Under the pieces are notes generated by a model. The model was not told the DNA's origin and did not search any database. It was given only the letters and a program-made list of their open reading frames with translations. A stretch of DNA of 64,000 nt from Escherichia phage 236Ecol005PP, in sequence record PP434423.1. The stretch is one strand, 5' to 3'. A program made the translations under genes and the position numbers. Below, one piece after another: positions 176-40,456 of this stretch; positions within the stretch are counted from its first letter, which is position 1, and each line of letters opens with the position of its first letter.

Positions 176-205
176 ATTATATCATATTAATACTTAAGCG
201 TAAAC
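176..205 (-). promoter_or_regulatory. T4-type early promoter (-35 GTTTAC, -10 TATAAT)
   Basis: minus strand GTTTAC-N18-TATAAT just upstream of ip start at 146. Confidence 0.5.
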
Positions 206-468
206 TGTTTAAGCTTTACCGCCAGAAATAATTCCGAAGTTGTTAAAATCATATCCAATATCGTCACATCTACTTTAGGGCTTGCTACAACATAAGCAAT
301 TTCACTACGTTTTGCATAGGTGTTTATTTCTCTACCATCGCCGCCTAGGAAAGAATACCCATTACGTTTTAATGAGCCAAAATCTTCGGCATCACCAACG
401 AAAGCTTTAACTTTAAATTTGGGGCCTTTGGCATCTGCTTCAGCGATAAATTCTTGATACATTTTCAT
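187..468 (-). CDS. internal head protein (ip family), 93 aa
   Basis: ATG start with AAGGA RBS; N-terminus MKMYQEFIAEA = CTS consensus. Confidence 0.7.
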   Translation of the reverse strand: MKMYQEFIAEADAKGPKFKVKAFVGDAEDFGSLKRNGYSFLGGDGREINTYAKRSEIAYVVASPKVDVTILDMILTTSELFLAVKLKQFTLKY

Positions 469-5210: not shown

Positions 5211-5765
5211 TTACCGGTAGCGACCCGGTTTCTCATTTGGTATTTCAAATTGTGTAGATTTAGTATCTAATTTTTTAACTATGGAACTTATGTCATGAAA
5301 GAAAAACCATTCGCCATTTATATGGTCCTGATTATAAATGCTGTGCATATATTTTTCAAGTTCTACTGCATCCTGGGAATATCTAAATGATACTATTTTA
5401 AAACTTTTAAACGGTGAAAATGTATTTGCTGTTATAACTCTAACATCAGGTTCTATACTTCTTCCTATTTTATAATAATTAGGATTTGTAGTATCTACCA
5501 TTATGTATACGAAAGCCTGTCGATAGCTTTTTTCTATATCAAATTCATCTTTAAATTTCAAAAGATTTAGGGCGGCAGTCCTACAAAATACTTTCCATTT
5601 TGACAAGCGTTTGGCTTCAGTCATAGAAAAGAATTTTTTCTTATCTGTTATTTTAAGAAAAGCAACATTTTCAATTAGTTCTTGTGTTATTTCAAAATTA
5701 CCGCGGTATATTAATCCAGCTTTTATAGCCAAATTAATTTGGTCCCAGTCTACATCACTTCTCAT
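5211..5765 (-). CDS. T5orf172 / GIY-YIG-like domain protein, 184 aa (possible seg-type mobile endonuclease)
   Basis: C-terminal AFVYIMVD...NYYKIGRS...GEWFFF resembles the T5orf172 GIY-YIG-like fold; ATG start. Confidence 0.7.
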   Translation of the reverse strand: MRSDVDWDQINLAIKAGLIYRGNFEITQELIENVAFLKITDKKKFFSMTEAKRLSKWKVFCRTAALNLLKFKDEFDIEKSYRQAFVYIMVDTTNPNYYKIGRSIEPDVRVITANTFSPFKSFKIVSFRYSQDAVELEKYMHSIYNQDHINGEWFFFHDISSIVKKLDTKSTQFEIPNEKPGRYR

Positions 5766-6742: not shown

Positions 6743-6811
6743 ATTATTAACAAAGGCTCTCAAGCAAGAACCCTTGATGATAGAGGGTATTAATCAGTGC
6801 GATATGAGTTA

Positions 6812-6835
6812 ATAATAACAAATAATTCTTAAAGC
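6812..6835 (-). promoter_or_regulatory. middle-type promoter (MotA box TGCTTTA, -10 TATTAT) upstream of tRNA cluster
   Basis: minus strand TGCTTTA-N12-TATTAT. Confidence 0.45.
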
Positions 6836-6839
6836 ATAT

Positions 6840-7127
6840 TTACCATTTATGATAATACATGTTTACGATGCATTCAAGACCCAAAGGATTCTTGAAAATA
6901 TCATATTCAAGAGGACCTTTTTCTGTTTCAATAAAGAAATCAAAATTTACTGTATTAAATTTACGGTCTTCCTTCACTAATTTAACTTGAGAAGATGAAC
7001 GGTCAATGTAAACCTTTTCAACTTCAAAACATGTTAAAATGCCATAATCGTCAATCAAGGCTTTAGCCGCGTCTTGATCATATTTATATCCATTTTCAAT
7101 GGATGATACTTTCGCATAAAGAATCAT
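6840..7127 (-). CDS. hypothetical protein, 95 aa
   Basis: ATG start; compact ORF between tRNA cluster and ip locus. Confidence 0.6.
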   Translation of the reverse strand: MILYAKVSSIENGYKYDQDAAKALIDDYGILTCFEVEKVYIDRSSSQVKLVKEDRKFNTVNFDFFIETEKGPLEYDIFKNPLGLECIVNMYYHKW

Positions 7128-7129
7128 TA

Positions 7130-7510
7130 TCAGCCTTCATCAACAATAGTATGCGTATTGGCATTTACGATTTGCCACCAATCAAAGCGATTAGAACCAT
7201 AATCTGGTTTGTTTTCATTTTCTTTGATAATGTCACGAAGTTCATCTTCAGTAGCGGCTTTCGCGATTAAATCAGCATATCCACCACGAGGATAATAATT
7301 ATCACCTGCAAAAAGTAAAAAGTTTGGTTTAATGTCATTGAACTCTTCAAGAGTAATAACTTTTCCTGACGGTTGAACAATCTCTACATATTTATACCCC
7401 AATTTTTGAGCAGCATCTACTGCTTCAAGCAAAGTATCATGAGCCCATCCAATTTGACAACCTGGCTTTTCAGATGGATTAGCCTGATAATCCGCATACA
7501 CTTTGTACAT
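7130..7510 (-). CDS. hypothetical protein, 126 aa
   Basis: ATG at 7510 with AAGGTGA RBS (track start 7519 is GTG). Confidence 0.6.
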   Translation of the reverse strand: MYKVYADYQANPSEKPGCQIGWAHDTLLEAVDAAQKLGYKYVEIVQPSGKVITLEEFNDIKPNFLLFAGDNYYPRGGYADLIAKAATEDELRDIIKENENKPDYGSNRFDWWQIVNANTHTIVDEG

Positions 7511-7511
7511 T

Positions 7512-7697
7512 CTATTCACCTTTAGAAATTTTATCCATAACGATAGCGATTAAACCAATTAAAAATGCTACTACAAGTGAAAACACATTTTCTGCTGTAG
7601 TTAATAATCCGCATATAAATCCAACAAACATTGAAAAACTAAAAGCGGAAGCAGAAATTGCAATAGCAACATTTCGAATTAATTCACAACGTTTCAT
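7512..7697 (-). CDS. small hydrophobic (membrane) protein, 61 aa
   Basis: ATG start; two predicted transmembrane stretches. Confidence 0.5.
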   Translation of the reverse strand: MKRCELIRNVAIAISASAFSFSMFVGFICGLLTTAENVFSLVVAFLIGLIAIVMDKISKGE

Positions 7698-7725
7698 TTT
7701 ATTCTCCTCTGTAGTTGATAGGGTA

Positions 7726-7755
7726 ATAGTATCACTACCCTATCTAAAAGTAAAC
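7726..7755 (-). promoter_or_regulatory. T4-type early promoter (-35 GTTTAC, -10 TACTAT) inside inverted repeat GATAGGG/CCCTATC
   Basis: GTTTAC-N18-TACTAT; 7-bp inverted repeat arms bracket the -10. Confidence 0.5.
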
Positions 7756-7767
7756 TGTTTTTATAAA

Positions 7768-8076
7768 CTATTTTATTCCGCGTGATGCAATTGTATTCTG
7801 TCGTTTAGCACCAGTTTGTTTAAAGTCATGATTGTCGATTTGATCGGTACGAGCAACTCCGAATGATGATTTAATCTTAGCTTTAGATCCTTTAGTTATA
7901 GAAATAAACATCTCGGAAGCCCCTTTCTTAAAGTCCGAAGCAATTACTTCAACACCGTTCTTAGCAAGTGACTTCAGAATTGCCTCCGCGTATTCATCGT
8001 CAAGACTCGCCTGAGTATTAATAACGAATGTCTTTGGCGCAGCCGCTTCATTGATAAATTCTTTAAATGTTTTCAT
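7768..8076 (-). CDS. internal head protein (ip family), 102 aa
   Basis: N-terminus MKTFKEFINEA = CTS; ATG start. Confidence 0.7.
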   Translation of the reverse strand: MKTFKEFINEAAAPKTFVINTQASLDDEYAEAILKSLAKNGVEVIASDFKKGASEMFISITKGSKAKIKSSFGVARTDQIDNHDFKQTGAKRQNTIASRGIK

Positions 8077-8106
8077 TTTATTTTCCTAATTAATTTTGAT
8101 GAGATA

Positions 8107-8136
8107 ATAGTATCACTACCCTATCTAAAAGTAAAC
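8107..8136 (-). promoter_or_regulatory. T4-type early promoter (near-copy of the 7726-7755 element)
   Basis: atagtatcactaccctatctaaaagtaaac repeated; GTTTAC-N18-TACTAT on minus. Confidence 0.5.
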
Positions 8137-8409
8137 TCATTTTAAATAAATTGCGTATTTTTTATAGCCACCAGGCTCGTGTCGAAGACCCCTATCATTA
8201 GCAAAACGCTCAATGTTGTTAATTTGATTCTGGTCAAGTTCAGAGATGTCAAACACGAAATAGTTACGTTTGTTACCAACTGTTACATAGTCAGTTAAAT
8301 CAATACCATATAGGTAATTGATGTCAGCAATCATAGTCTTGACAGCTTTGCTAATTTTTACTTTTTCGTTAAAAGTAGCTTCATTGATAAATTCTTTAAA
8401 TGTTTTCAT
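8137..8409 (-). CDS. internal head protein (ip family), 90 aa
   Basis: N-terminus MKTFKEFINEA = CTS; ATG start. Confidence 0.7.
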   Translation of the reverse strand: MKTFKEFINEATFNEKVKISKAVKTMIADINYLYGIDLTDYVTVGNKRNYFVFDISELDQNQINNIERFANDRGLRHEPGGYKKYAIYLK

Positions 8410-8442
8410 TTTATCCTATCACTCATTTGTTTTGATATGGTA

Positions 8443-8472
8443 ATAGTATCACAACTAAAACCCTGTGTAAAT
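8443..8472 (-). promoter_or_regulatory. T4-type early promoter (-35 TTTACA, -10 TACTAT)
   Basis: third copy of the ggtaatagtatcac motif upstream of an ip gene. Confidence 0.45.
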
Positions 8473-8484
8473 AACTTTGTGAAA

Positions 8485-9181
<697 letters not shown>

Positions 9182-9182
<1 letters not shown>

Positions 9183-9907
9183 TATAGTACCTTTAGTGTA
9201 TTTTTAATTTTAGAAAAAAGTTCTTCAAGAGAACCATCGTTTGTAATTACTAAATCGCCATCACGAATTGGCAATCCAGCTTCTGTAATATGAGTATCAT
9301 TGGATTTTTGACCAGGACGAACTACATGAATTACTGTAGCACCCATCGCCCTAGCCGCATCCATTTCATGATCTTGACGAGTATCAGGAACGATATAATA
9401 ATCATAACCTGAGTTAAATTTATCAAGATAATCTAAAGCAAATAATTTTACCCAATACATGCGGTCGAAGTTATTAACAATCAAATCCGTACCTAGGGCT
9501 TGCATCAGACGACGGACTGACCATTGATCTTCAATATTATTTATAACGTCAGCAATCTTGTTAAATGCTACGAAAGTAACTGATTCTTTTCCTTCGTCAT
9601 CAAAAACAAACACGCCTTTAATTGGGCTTTTACTATTAAGATAGCAAAATGCTTGTTCCATAATCGTAATTACTTCTAATTTAGTCAGATTCAAATTAGT
9701 CTCACGATCATAGTCAATTCCTTCAAACTCTTTACGAGTTAAACAAGGATAGTCAGTGTTTGCTGCAAATACGCCCCATGCATAAGCCAATGCATCTTTA
9801 ATAGGACCAGCAAGTTGATATTTAACTGCAGAATAATTATTCATGATAAAATCTGCAGTAGTATCTTTTCCACTACGCTTTACACCGCTTAAAAAGATTA
9901 GTTTCAT
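9182..9907 (-). CDS. 1: deoxynucleoside monophosphate kinase
   Basis: P-loop GVKRSGKDT; 241 aa as T4 gp1; synteny. Confidence 0.9.
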
Positions 9908-36969: not shown

Positions 36970-37394
36970 TGCTTCTGATCCCTGAAACTCATGAATTAGT
37001 TCTCGAGCATGTCGAAGCACTTATTCCTGAAGCACAGGGTCGCTTTGACGAATTGTCTTCTGCTTTAAATAAAGACGATATAAATACAATTGTCGAGAAT
37101 ATGCTTGATGATGAAACTGATTTAGCAGTTGCATTAGCTTCTATTAATGAAAATATGCCGTTAAATGAATTCATTGTTAAGCATGTTTCAGCTCGTGGTG
37201 AAATTACACGTACTAAAGACCGCAAAACACGCGAACGTAATGCATTTCAAACCACTGGGCTGTCTAAAGCAAAACGTAGACAAATTGCTCGCAAAGCTAC
37301 CAAAACGAAGATTGCCAATCCAGCAGGTCAATCTCGTGCTCAGCGTAAGCGTAAAAAAGCTCTTAAACGCCGTAAAGCATTAGGATTAAGCTAA
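36969..37394 (+). CDS. 68: prohead core protein
   Basis: 141 aa as T4 gp68; basic C-terminus; synteny. Confidence 0.85.
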
Positions 37395-38032
37395 TGAATG
37401 AACCCCAATTACTAATTGAAACTTGGGGTCAACCTGGCGAAATTATTGATGGTGTGCCAATGCTTGAATCCCACGATGGAAAAGACTTAGGTTTAAAGCC
37501 GGGTTTATACATCGAAGGAATATTCATGCAAGCGGAAGTCGTCAATAGAAATAAACGTCTTTATCCAAAACGCATATTAGAAAAAGCGGTAAAAGACTAT
37601 ATCAATGAGCAAGTTTTAACTAAACAAGCTCTCGGAGAATTAAATCATCCTCCACGCGCTAATGTTGACCCGATGCAAGCCGCTATCATTATAGAAGATA
37701 TGTGGTGGAAAGGAAATGACGTATACGGACGAGCTCGTGTTATTGAAGGTGACCACGGTCCTGGAGATAAATTAGCAGCTAATATTCGTGCCGGATGGAT
37801 TCCAGGAGTTTCTTCTCGTGGATTAGGTTCATTGACTGACACAAATAAAGGTTATCGTATCGTAAACGAAGGATTCAAATTAACTGTAGGTGTTGATGCA
37901 GTATGGGGTCCAAGTGCTCCAGATGCATGGGTAACTCCTAAGGAAATTACCGAATCACAGACGGCGGAAGCCGATACAAGTGCCGATGACGCCTATATGG
38001 CTCTCGCAGAGGCCATGAAAAAAGCGTTATAA
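37394..38032 (+). CDS. 21: prohead core protease
   Basis: 212 aa as T4 gp21; synteny. Confidence 0.9.
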   Translation: MNEPQLLIETWGQPGEIIDGVPMLESHDGKDLGLKPGLYIEGIFMQAEVVNRNKRLYPKRILEKAVKDYINEQVLTKQALGELNHPPRANVDPMQAAIIIEDMWWKGNDVYGRARVIEGDHGPGDKLAANIRAGWIPGVSSRGLGSLTDTNKGYRIVNEGFKLTVGVDAVWGPSAPDAWVTPKEITESQTAEADTSADDAYMALAEAMKKAL

Positions 38033-38035
38033 ATA
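38028..38035 (+). promoter_or_regulatory. late promoter TATAAATA for gene 22
   Basis: exact TATAAATA overlapping the gp21 stop. Confidence 0.55.
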
Positions 38036-38062
38036 TTATTATCTAAACAACAGGACTACAAA

Positions 38063-38872
38063 ATGCTTAAAGAACAACTGATTGCTGAAGCGCAAAAAAT
38101 TGATGCTTCCGTTGCTCTTGATAGTATTTTCGAATCAGTTAGTATTTCTCCGGAAGCAAAAGAAACTTTCGGCACTGTATTCGAAGCTACCGTCAAGCAG
38201 CACGCCGTTAAATTAGCTGAATCCCATATCGCTAAAATTGCTGAAAAAGCAGAAGAAGAAGTAGAAAAAAATAAAGAAGAAGCCGAAGAAAAAGCTGAGA
38301 AGAAAATCGCTGAGCAAGCTTCTAAATTCATCGACCATCTTGCGAAAGAATGGCTCGCTGAAAATAAATTAGCAGTTGATAAAGGCATCAAAGCCGAATT
38401 GTTTGAATCCATGCTTGGTGGATTAAAAGAGCTCTTTGTTGAACACAACGTTGTTGTTCCAGAAGAATCAGTTGATATTGTAGCTGAAATGGAAGAAGAG
38501 CTGCAAGAACATAAAGAAGAATCAGCTCGTCTGTTCGAAGAACTCAATATGCGCGACGCATATATCAATTATGTGCAGCGTGAAGTGGCATTGAGCGAAA
38601 GTACTAAAGATCTGACTGAGTCTCAAAAAGAAAAAGTCTCTGCTCTGGTCGAAGGTATGGATTATTCAGATGAATTCTCAAATAAATTGAGTGCCATCGT
38701 AGAAATGGTGAAGAAGTCTAATAAAGATGAAAGCACTATTACTGAGGGTATAAATACTCCTGATACTGAAGCAGCCGGACTGAATTTCGTCACTGAAGCT
38801 GTAGAAGATAAAGCTGCACCTGGTGCAGAAGATATTGTAAGTGTATATGCGAAAGTCGCATCTCGTTTCTAA
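38063..38872 (+). CDS. 22: prohead core scaffold protein
   Basis: 269 aa, highly acidic coiled-coil; synteny. Confidence 0.9.
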   Translation: MLKEQLIAEAQKIDASVALDSIFESVSISPEAKETFGTVFEATVKQHAVKLAESHIAKIAEKAEEEVEKNKEEAEEKAEKKIAEQASKFIDHLAKEWLAENKLAVDKGIKAELFESMLGGLKELFVEHNVVVPEESVDIVAEMEEELQEHKEESARLFEELNMRDAYINYVQREVALSESTKDLTESQKEKVSALVEGMDYSDEFSNKLSAIVEMVKKSNKDESTITEGINTPDTEAAGLNFVTEAVEDKAAPGAEDIVSVYAKVASRF

Positions 38873-38890
38873 TTTTAAAGGTTAACACAA

Positions 38891-40456
38891 ATGACTATCA
38901 AAACTAAAGCTGAACTTTTGAACAAATGGAAGCCATTACTGGAAGGTGAAGGTTTACCGGAAATTGCTAATAGCAAACAAGCGATTATCGCTAAAATCTT
39001 TGAAAACCAGGAAAAAGATTTCCAGACAGCTCCAGAGTACAAAGACGAAAAAATCGCTCAGGCGTTCGGTTCTTTCTTAACAGAAGCTGAAATCGGTGGT
39101 GACCACGGTTACAATGCTACTAACATCGCTGCAGGTCAGACTTCTGGCGCAGTAACTCAGATTGGCCCAGCTGTTATGGGTATGGTACGTCGTGCTATTC
39201 CTAACCTGATTGCTTTCGATATTTGCGGTGTTCAGCCGATGAACAGCCCGACTGGCCAGGTATTCGCACTGCGCGCAGTATACGGTAAAGACCCGGTCGC
39301 TTCCGGTGCTAAAGAAGCATTCCACCCAATGTATGGTCCAGATGCAATGTTCTCTGGTCAGGGTGCTGCTAAGAAATTCGCTGCTTTGAAAGCAAGTGAT
39401 ACTCTTGAAGTTGGAACTATTTACACCCACTTCTTCCAGGACACTGGTACTGTGTATCTGCAAGCTACAGAAGTTAAGCAAATTGATACTAGTGCAACTG
39501 ACGCAGCTAAATTAGATGCTGAAATTAAGAAACAAATGGAAGCTGGTGTACTGGTAGAAATCGCTGAAGGTATGGCTACTTCTGTCGCTGAACTTCAGGA
39601 AAGTTTCAACGGTTCTACCGATAACCCATGGAATGAAATGGGCTTCCGTATCGATAAACAAGTTATCGAAGCTAAATCTCGCCAGCTGAAAGCTGCTTAC
39701 TCTATCGAATTAGCACAAGACCTCCGCGCTGTTCACGGTATGGATGCTGATGCTGAACTGTCTGGTATTCTGGCTACAGAAATCATGCTGGAAATTAACC
39801 GTGAAGTTGTTGATTGGATTAACTACTCAGCTCAGGTTGGTAAATCTGGTATGACCCTGACTCCGGGTTCTAAAGCTGGTGTATTTGACTTCCAGGATCC
39901 GATTGATATTCGTGGTGCTCGCTGGGCGGGTGAATCCTTTAAAGCTCTGTTGTTCCAGATTGACAAAGAAGCAGTTGAAATTGCTCGTCAGACTGGTCGT
40001 GGTGAAGGTAACTTCATTATCGCTTCCCGTAACGTAGTTAACGTTCTGGCTTCAGTTGATACCGGCATTTCTTATGCTGCACAGGGTCTGGCTACCGGCT
40101 TTAACACTGATACTACCAAGTCAGTATTTGCTGGTGTTCTGGGTGGTAAATACCGTGTATATATCGACCAGTATGCTAAACAGGATTATTTCACTGTAGG
40201 TTATAAAGGTCCGAACGAAATGGATGCTGGTATTTACTATGCTCCATATGTAGCTCTGACTCCGCTGCGTGGTTCCGATCCGAAGAACTTCCAACCAGTA
40301 ATGGGATTCAAAACTCGTTACGGTATCGGTATCAACCCATTTGCAGAATCCGCTGCTCAGGCTCCGGCTTCTCGCATCCAGAGCGGTATGCCTTCTATTC
40401 TGAATAGCCTTGGTAAAAACGCTTACTTCCGCCGTGTATATGTTAAAGGTATCTAA
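38891..40456 (+). CDS. 23: major capsid protein
   Basis: MTIKTKAELLNKWKPLLEGEG... 521 aa, T4 gp23 sequence. Confidence 0.97.
   Translation: MTIKTKAELLNKWKPLLEGEGLPEIANSKQAIIAKIFENQEKDFQTAPEYKDEKIAQAFGSFLTEAEIGGDHGYNATNIAAGQTSGAVTQIGPAVMGMVRRAIPNLIAFDICGVQPMNSPTGQVFALRAVYGKDPVASGAKEAFHPMYGPDAMFSGQGAAKKFAALKASDTLEVGTIYTHFFQDTGTVYLQATEVKQIDTSATDAAKLDAEIKKQMEAGVLVEIAEGMATSVAELQESFNGSTDNPWNEMGFRIDKQVIEAKSRQLKAAYSIELAQDLRAVHGMDADAELSGILATEIMLEINREVVDWINYSAQVGKSGMTLTPGSKAGVFDFQDPIDIRGARWAGESFKALLFQIDKEAVEIARQTGRGEGNFIIASRNVVNVLASVDTGISYAAQGLATGFNTDTTKSVFAGVLGGKYRVYIDQYAKQDYFTVGYKGPNEMDAGIYYAPYVALTPLRGSDPKNFQPVMGFKTRYGIGINPFAESAAQAPASRIQSGMPSILNSLGKNAYFRRVYVKGI

Follow-up and report, generated by a model that had tools for sequence, protein, structure and literature searches.

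Two leader-bearing internal protein genes, ip9 and ip7, at the polymorphic ipI locus of a T4-like phage, with features pointing to motif-guided cassette exchange

Introduction

The internal proteins (IPs) of T-even phages are the first phage molecules to meet host defences, and the locus studied here shows how these phages swap such effectors. The GmrSD type IV restriction enzyme that E. coli CT596 possesses is a target of T4 IPI*, which inhibits it (PMC3012670). A 2025 study found that Ip1, Ip2, and Ip3 each block a distinct GmrSD, Ip2 and Ip3 being strictly specific, while ip4-10 gave no reproducible match with further GmrSD variants and an apparent interaction between ip7 and CLS_011 was not repeated (PMC12373910). 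The N-terminal 10 residues of IPIII are sufficient for packaging, with residues 4 and 7 involved in targeting and residues 8 and 10 in processing by the gp21 protease (PMC9026906). The two proteins described below have in common with the T4 IPI/IPII/IPIII and T-even Ip4-Ip10+ series (Black and co-workers; Repoila et al. 1994) the locus, between 57B and tRNA.4, a 10-residue N-terminal CTS with an I/L-x-E motif, and a small basic size.

Repoila et al. (EMBO J 1994, 13:4181) reportedly described polymorphic IP loci, a leader motif carried by unrelated ORFs, and flanks resembling promoters and stem-loops. Rao and Black (2010) state much the same on IP diversity. A closely related system is that of the promoter-early stem-loop (PeSL) cassettes of RB49/phi1 and other T4-like phages, in which a promoter with a stem-loop flanks small variable genes and chimeric motifs are found at the junctions (Arbiol et al. 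2010, PMC2839356; Comeau et al. 2014, PMC4122927). Arbiol et al. class the IP-locus elements as analogues of PeSLs and not as homologues (PMC2839356); according to that article, PeSL-like sequences were seen at the two IP loci by Repoila (1994), and the number of known IP variants exceeds 30 (PMC2839356). The cassette-shuffling reading applied here is therefore a published model and already known (Repoila et al. 1994, Comeau et al. 2007, Arbiol et al. 2010). The new detail is modest and consists of a clear chimera among the predicted promoters, a CTS that appears to have been homogenised across two adjacent genes, and CTS-free homologues of the Ip9 cargo.

Here, we analyzed a stretch of 64,000 nucleotides from Escherichia phage 236Ecol005PP (PP434423.1), referred to as the window. 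Our overall reading, to which we assign a probability of about 0.88, is that a polymorphic ipI locus harbours ip9 followed by ip7, that both would encode CTS-packaged and likely anti-defence proteins, and that the content of the locus would change by motif-guided shuffling of cassettes.

Results

The window is a Tequatrovirus (T4-like) genome; the best DNA match for the region is Tequatrovirus HMD-9, with 98.4% identity over 2.2 kb. On the minus strand, gene 1, 57A, and 57B are followed by a 90-aa ORF, a 102-aa ORF, tRNA.4, tRNA.3, tRNA.2, and a cluster of ten tRNAs (Table 1), which is the gene order annotated at the ipI locus of T4 and RB32. The two ORFs occupy this classical polymorphic locus between 57B (Acb1) and tRNA.4 and are genuine genes, already named Ip7 and Ip9 in GenBank records. 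An earlier sequence-only reading had predicted two CTS-bearing proteins of an internal-protein locus at this site. Both frames were found where it had placed them, on the minus strand and with lengths of 102 and 90 aa, and the assignment holds in view of the homology to Ip7 and Ip9, the PHROG matches described below, and the position between 57B and tRNA.4. Since 57B encodes Acb1 and adjoins the slot, the IP cassettes follow straight after a further gene for counter-defence. Many relatives have a first CTS gene that overlaps the 57B stop codon (ATGA). The second IP locus, in the region of denV and e, is likewise part of the window; it comprises CTS ORFs at 187-468 and 948-1229 and a further one that is cut by the start of the window.

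Table 1 Features of the ipI locus and further genes of the window, with coordinates in the window.
Feature	Position	Strand	Description
gene 1 (dNMP kinase)	9182-9907	minus	
57A	8940-9182	minus	
57B	8485-8940	minus	Anti-CBASS protein/nuclease Acb1 (Pfam PF23474 Acb1, E=4.7e-60; T4 and RB32 annotation); conserved upstream flank
ip9 early-type promoter (predicted)	8443-8472	minus	ATTTAC, 18-nt spacer, TACTAT with TG extended -10; fold -7.2 kcal/mol, z -1.0, no significant stem-loop
37-nt block, Ip9 copy	8378-8414	minus	ATAAA (5 nt of leader), ATG, CTS codons for MKTFKEFINEA, I8-x-E10 cleavage motif
ip9	8137-8409	minus	ORF, 90 aa; predicted mature form after E10 80 aa, 9.3 kDa, pI 8.9
ip7 promoter, 5' half (predicted)	8105-8136	minus	GTTTAC, 18-nt spacer, TACTAT; 32/32 identical to tRNA.4 promoter
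ip7 promoter, 3' half and leader	8077-8104	minus	TCTCATCAAAATTAATTAGGAAAATAAA (28 nt); type found before T4 ipI and G8 Ip7
37-nt block, Ip7 copy	8045-8081	minus	Leader end and CTS codons
ip7	7768-8076	minus	ORF, 102 aa; predicted mature form 92 aa, 9.9 kDa, pI 9.65
tRNA.4 promoter (predicted)	7724-7755, within 7717-7755	minus	12-bp stem-loop 7717-7744 overlaps -10
tRNA.4	7512-7697	minus	61-aa predicted membrane protein; conserved downstream flank
gp21, gp22, gp23 genes	37394-40456		Encoded within the window

The product of ip7 is 100% identical to Ip7 of RB32, is present in 283 phage records, and matches PHROG 2667 'internal head protein' (E=2e-41). Ip9 matches PHROG 7673, likewise 'internal head protein' (E=2e-53), and its identity amounts to 100% with the HMD-9 'internal head protein', 86-88% with Ip9 of RB15 (UniProt Q38376) and RB33, and 78% with VR7 ip9. 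Its cargo family was found in 182 phage records, and a HMMER scan of 1.84 billion proteins with Ip9 returned only 13 relatives. No significant Pfam family was obtained for Ip7 or Ip9, and a PDB sequence search using profiles gave no match. According to structure prediction, both proteins fold as small alpha/beta sandwiches; the AlphaFold model of Ip7 comprises a folded core of residues ~15-60 and a basic disordered tail (76-102). At the other IP locus, the 93-aa CTS ORF at 187-468 (minus strand; MKMYQEFIAEA) matches the Ip7 family phrog_2667 over residues 1-66 (E=7e-17), and BLASTP against Ip7 of the window showed no significant similarity beyond the leader.

The proposal that both ORFs start with MKTFKEFINEA and diverge afterwards was confirmed, as BLASTP aligned residues 1-11 only (11/11 identical) and a profile-profile comparison of the two families (hhalign) aligned only the N-terminal ~20 columns. 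The proteins had also been called paralogous, which is right for the 11-residue leader, whereas the cargo parts are unrelated. At the DNA level, the shared N-terminus lies in an identical block of 37 nt (Table 1), and such a match was obtained in 0 of 100 shuffles. In both ORFs, MKTFKEFINE resembles MKTYQEFIAE, with the aromatic F at residue 4, F at residue 7, and I and E at residues 8 and 10, respectively. T4 IPI itself begins with MKTFKEF and likewise has F at position 4. Both also contain the gp21 motif (L/I-x-E, cut after E10) as I8-N9-E10 followed by A11, where cleavage is predicted.

In order to follow the slot across relatives, we retrieved 33 related loci from IMG/VR with 57B as the query and catalogued, together with the window (34 loci), all CTS ORFs between 57B and tRNA.4. 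The number of CTS genes per locus was 0 in 4 loci, 1 in 13, 2 in 13, and 3 in 4, giving 51 CTS ORFs that fall into 16 cargo families without detectable mutual similarity. The window and L023 have the order Ip9-Ip7, and L004 has the reverse, Ip7-Ip9. Ip7 stands alone in G8 (L030), L024, and L025, and Ip9 alone in L006; D-Ip9, A-D-Ip9, J-Ip9-Ip7, and K-A-Ip7 are further combinations. Annotated records show T4 with ipI, GiZh with ipV-ipVI, RB32 with Ip5-Ip9-Ip7, and UFV-AREG1 with four genes, ipI-Ip9-Ip7-X. The arrangement of the window is covered to at least 80% by 24 of the 870 phage records matching the region. The comparison thus revealed a variable cargo behind a retained CTS, and an invariant, conserved Ip7/Ip9 pair was not found among the 34 loci. 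M1 and F7 are invariant in the 51 ORFs and E10 is present in 47 of them, the CTS being conserved at the protein level across many DNA variants.

The sequence-only reading had proposed to check whether the promoter is conserved along with the CTS. The CTS is indeed constant, but a private promoter, defined as GTTTAC-N16-18-TAnnnT within 85 nt, precedes only 22 of the 51 CTS ORFs. This indicates that the promoter is not an obligatory part of a cassette and that promoter-guided exchange cannot be the sole route. Many CTS ORFs start at or overlap the preceding stop codon and are translationally coupled. A further CTS ORF of the window, at 948-1229 on the minus strand, has denV (475-900) on one side and the lysozyme gene e (1226-1714) on the other and shares 48% identity with Ip5 of RB32. 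As Ip5 is located at the ipI locus in RB32 and GiZh and its relative at denV/e, cargo families are common to both IP loci.

The promoters of the window were assigned by motif alone. A specific pattern search detected (G/A)TTTAC, an 18-nt spacer, and TACTAT with TG upstream of Ip9, Ip7, and tRNA.4; a generic sigma-70 scan missed two of these three copies, since GTTTAC, the early -35 of T4, is a poor match to TTGACA. We found an exact 32-nt repeat, GTTTACTTTTAGATAGGGTAGTGATACTATTA, which was not matched in 100 shuffles (0/100) and whose two copies lie upstream of ip7 and of tRNA.4 (Table 1). The earlier suggestion of a near-identical promoter element before each CTS gene is thus correct in that an early motif precedes both genes, but the 32-nt copies precede Ip7 and tRNA.4 and not Ip9. 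Over 49 nt, the element that precedes Ip9 (8432-8480) reaches only 65% identity, and the common parts are limited to the -35 ATTTAC and the extended -10 GTGATACTAT. Since the promoter copies flank Ip7 while the CTS copies lie within Ip7 and Ip9, the locus contains two separate, offset repeats of 32 and 37 nt rather than the single duplicated promoter-plus-CTS module that had been envisaged. Intrinsic terminator prediction between 6800 and 9000 gave no hit. A late promoter, TATAAATA, was not found directly upstream of the genes; the nearest on the same strand is at 9538-9545.

The 3' half of the ip7 promoter and the adjoining leader belong to the type found before T4 ipI. To judge by these matches, the ip7 promoter is a chimera of a tRNA.4-type 5' half and a T4-ipI-type 3' half, in which the stem is broken. 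The tRNA.4 copy has a predicted fold of -16.4 kcal/mol (z -4.2; 0/200 shuffles as stable) and the ip7 copy one of -7.3 kcal/mol (z -0.6); that of T4 ipI has -12 kcal/mol (z -3.5), its stem overlapping the -10. A significant stem is therefore present in one of the three promoter copies of the window, and this tRNA.4 stem-loop is a PeSL-like element that forms the downstream boundary of the IP slot. In G8, where this leader type precedes Ip7, Ip7 is the sole IP gene. The element upstream of Ip9 offers a further observation: the 3' part of its leader (8429-8477, minus strand), CCATATCAAAACAAATGAGTGATAGGATAAA, is of the type that precedes tRNA.4 in more distant relatives (L006, L010-L015), in which Ip9 directly adjoins tRNA.4 on its upstream side. 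Not only cargoes but also leaders appear to have been swapped between genes.

When six loci were aligned, homology between phages differing in content was found to break repeatedly at the -10 core GTGATACTATTA, at the ribosome-binding leader, and at the CTS codons ATGAAAAC... The CTS DNA of Ip9 in the window is exactly that of Ip7. RB32 and L023 have an Ip9 gene that departs from it at 6 of 33 nt in this stretch, whereas divergence in the cargo amounts to 5.8-6.2% (Fisher p=0.02). Between the window and RB32, Ip7 shows no difference across the CTS stretch, and Ip9 with Ip7-type CTS DNA is common to the window, HMD-9, and W143. This pattern fits homogenisation of the Ip9 CTS to that of Ip7, which may have occurred in the lineage of the window by a crossover or gene conversion at the junction of leader and cargo, the p value of 0.02 being modest. 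According to the GenBank record of RB32, its Ip9 is 'flanked by 43 bp direct repeat, along with Ip7'.

Discussion

The suggestion that cargoes are exchanged by recombination is supported by the chimeric promoter, the apparent homogenisation of the CTS, and the shuffled cassette content. These footprints match the traces expected of promoter-bounded integration and excision of cassettes, from which we infer the mechanism itself. Short conserved motifs would be the sites at which homologous recombination shuffles the cassettes. These motifs are the early promoter of T4, with its -35 GTTTAC and -10 core GTGATACTATTA and frequently contained in a stem-loop, the leader that binds the ribosome, and the codons of the CTS. 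In this way, cargo genes would be inserted, deleted, reordered, and provided with new leaders. The N-terminal 10-residue CTS would direct each protein into the scaffolding core of the prohead, and the gp21 prohead protease would cut after Glu10, between I-N-E and A, so that small proteins of basic character and 9-10 kDa would remain in the head. Injection together with the DNA would then allow Ip7 and Ip9 to act ahead of all phage gene expression, most likely against a host defence.

A simpler origin of the pair would be a tandem duplication, making Ip7 and Ip9 true paralogues whose bodies have diverged past recognition while the N-terminus was conserved. The genes are adjacent, of similar size, on the same strand, and identical over 37 nt at their 5' end, and both predicted folds are small alpha/beta sandwiches. 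However, similarity ends at residue ~11-20 in BLASTP and hhalign, and we reject cargo paralogy on this evidence. The two cargoes belong to separate conserved families, present in 283 and 182 phage records, and they are found singly as well as in reverse order; the leaderless homologues of the Ip9 cargo in siphoviruses and Ackermannviridae indicate an independent origin. The identity of the CTS is moreover lineage-specific, given the differing Ip9 CTS of RB32 and L023. Taken together, a duplication is hardly credible. It is also very improbable that the N-terminal block serves translation initiation or another kind of targeting and that Ip7 and Ip9 stay out of the virion as ordinary early proteins of the cytoplasm. 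In line with such a role in expression, the identical block takes in 5 nt before the ATG and the promoters are of the early type, with no late promoter TATAAATA directly upstream. In addition, our literature search found no report of virion proteomics on Ip7 or Ip9 that would support packaging. Yet the peptide matches the T4 CTS at the key residues 4, 7, 8, and 10 (PMC9026906), its conservation is at the level of the protein across many DNA variants, and CTS genes are confined to the two IP loci (PMC2839356). An upstream element of this type also precedes T4 ipI, whose product IPI reaches ~360 copies per head. Ip7 and Ip9 are thus probably packed into the head and injected with the DNA, as their CTS suggests.

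The variation of the slot might instead stem mainly from co-conversion by homing endonucleases or from illegitimate recombination and not from homology in promoter and CTS. The homing endonuclease SegB is encoded in the adjacent tRNA cluster of T4, the ORF at 5211-5765 of the window, with a T5orf172/MUG113 domain, adjoins the tRNAs, and many cassettes of distant relatives have no promoter. Against this, the breaks in the six-locus alignment recur at the -10 core, the leader, or the CTS, and chimeric promoters together with a CTS swap are the expected product of crossovers inside these motifs. The direct repeat of 43 bp around Ip9 and Ip7 in RB32 likewise speaks for exchange at short repeats, and co-conversion would move whole flanks together and would not on its own reorder cassettes (Ip7-Ip9 versus Ip9-Ip7). 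We therefore consider it unlikely as the main source of variation and retain motif-guided shuffling as the preferred reading. The ORF at 5211-5765 (minus strand) encodes 184 aa, and its domain is related to GIY-YIG. Unlike in the T4 cluster, segB is absent between tRNA-Arg and the other tRNAs in the window.

Compared to the PeSL cassettes of RB49/phi1, the locus is alike in that the stem overlaps the -10 at the tRNA.4 and the T4 ipI copies. The PeSLs of RB49/phi1 have a sigma-70 consensus, GGGG...CCCC stems, and terminator activity, whereas the window has T4 early promoters, AT-rich stems without polyG or polyC, and no predicted intrinsic terminator in 6800-9000. The CTS codons would furthermore offer recombination a second substrate, located within the coding region and absent from PeSL cassettes. 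By analogy only, the slot also resembles an integron-like cassette array, as it is a fixed site with 0-4 interchangeable small adaptive genes and short bounding repeats. It differs from integrons in having neither an integrase nor attC, and exchange is presumed to proceed by the general homologous recombination of the phage over repeats of ~30-45 bp.

Regarding function, the inhibition of GmrSD enzymes by Ip1-3 makes a defence inhibitor the most likely role of Ip7 and Ip9, by analogy only. They would be injected inhibitors of some host defence, possibly of a further type IV (GmrSD-type) enzyme. Ip7 and Ip9 are unrelated to IPI in both cargo sequence and predicted fold, and no similarity in sequence or predicted fold was found to the known GmrSD inhibitors IPI*, Ip2, and Ip3. 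In contrast to Ip1-3, which have GmrSD targets, Ip7 and Ip9 gave none reproducibly in the published screen (PMC12373910).

The cargo of Ip9 (residues ~18-90) additionally has homologues without a CTS in siphoviruses and inside large proteins of Ackermannviridae. A 72-aa protein of the Kagunavirus UTEC10 (L039:3004-3222) is 49% identical to the Ip9 cargo and lacks the CTS. It heads an early-looking operon of small genes located 3' of an intergenic region of ~500 bp in these ~45-kb siphophages, and further leaderless relatives have 66-79 aa. In Ackermannviridae, the domain is located near the C-terminus of proteins of ~860-960 aa (phrog_3867; L040:1340-4234), beside genes for a 'putative structural protein'. 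These leaderless relatives suggest that the T-even form arose by the joining of a pre-existing domain to a leader. We tentatively consider the Ip9 cargo a stand-alone phage domain that T-even phages may have captured by fusion to the CTS, although we would not call this scenario likely. If all three forms of the domain shared one host target, IP loci would turn early anti-defence genes into pre-packaged, injected effectors, and the siphovirus homologues would then offer an easy route to the target of Ip9.

A CTS is also lacking in the 'ip7 protein' of Escherichia phage OLB35 (P0017, 77 aa), in which residues ~29-72 of Ip7 are fused to residues ~59-90 of Ip9. This fusion looks like the result of a deletion between neighbouring genes in a phage with the order Ip7-Ip9.
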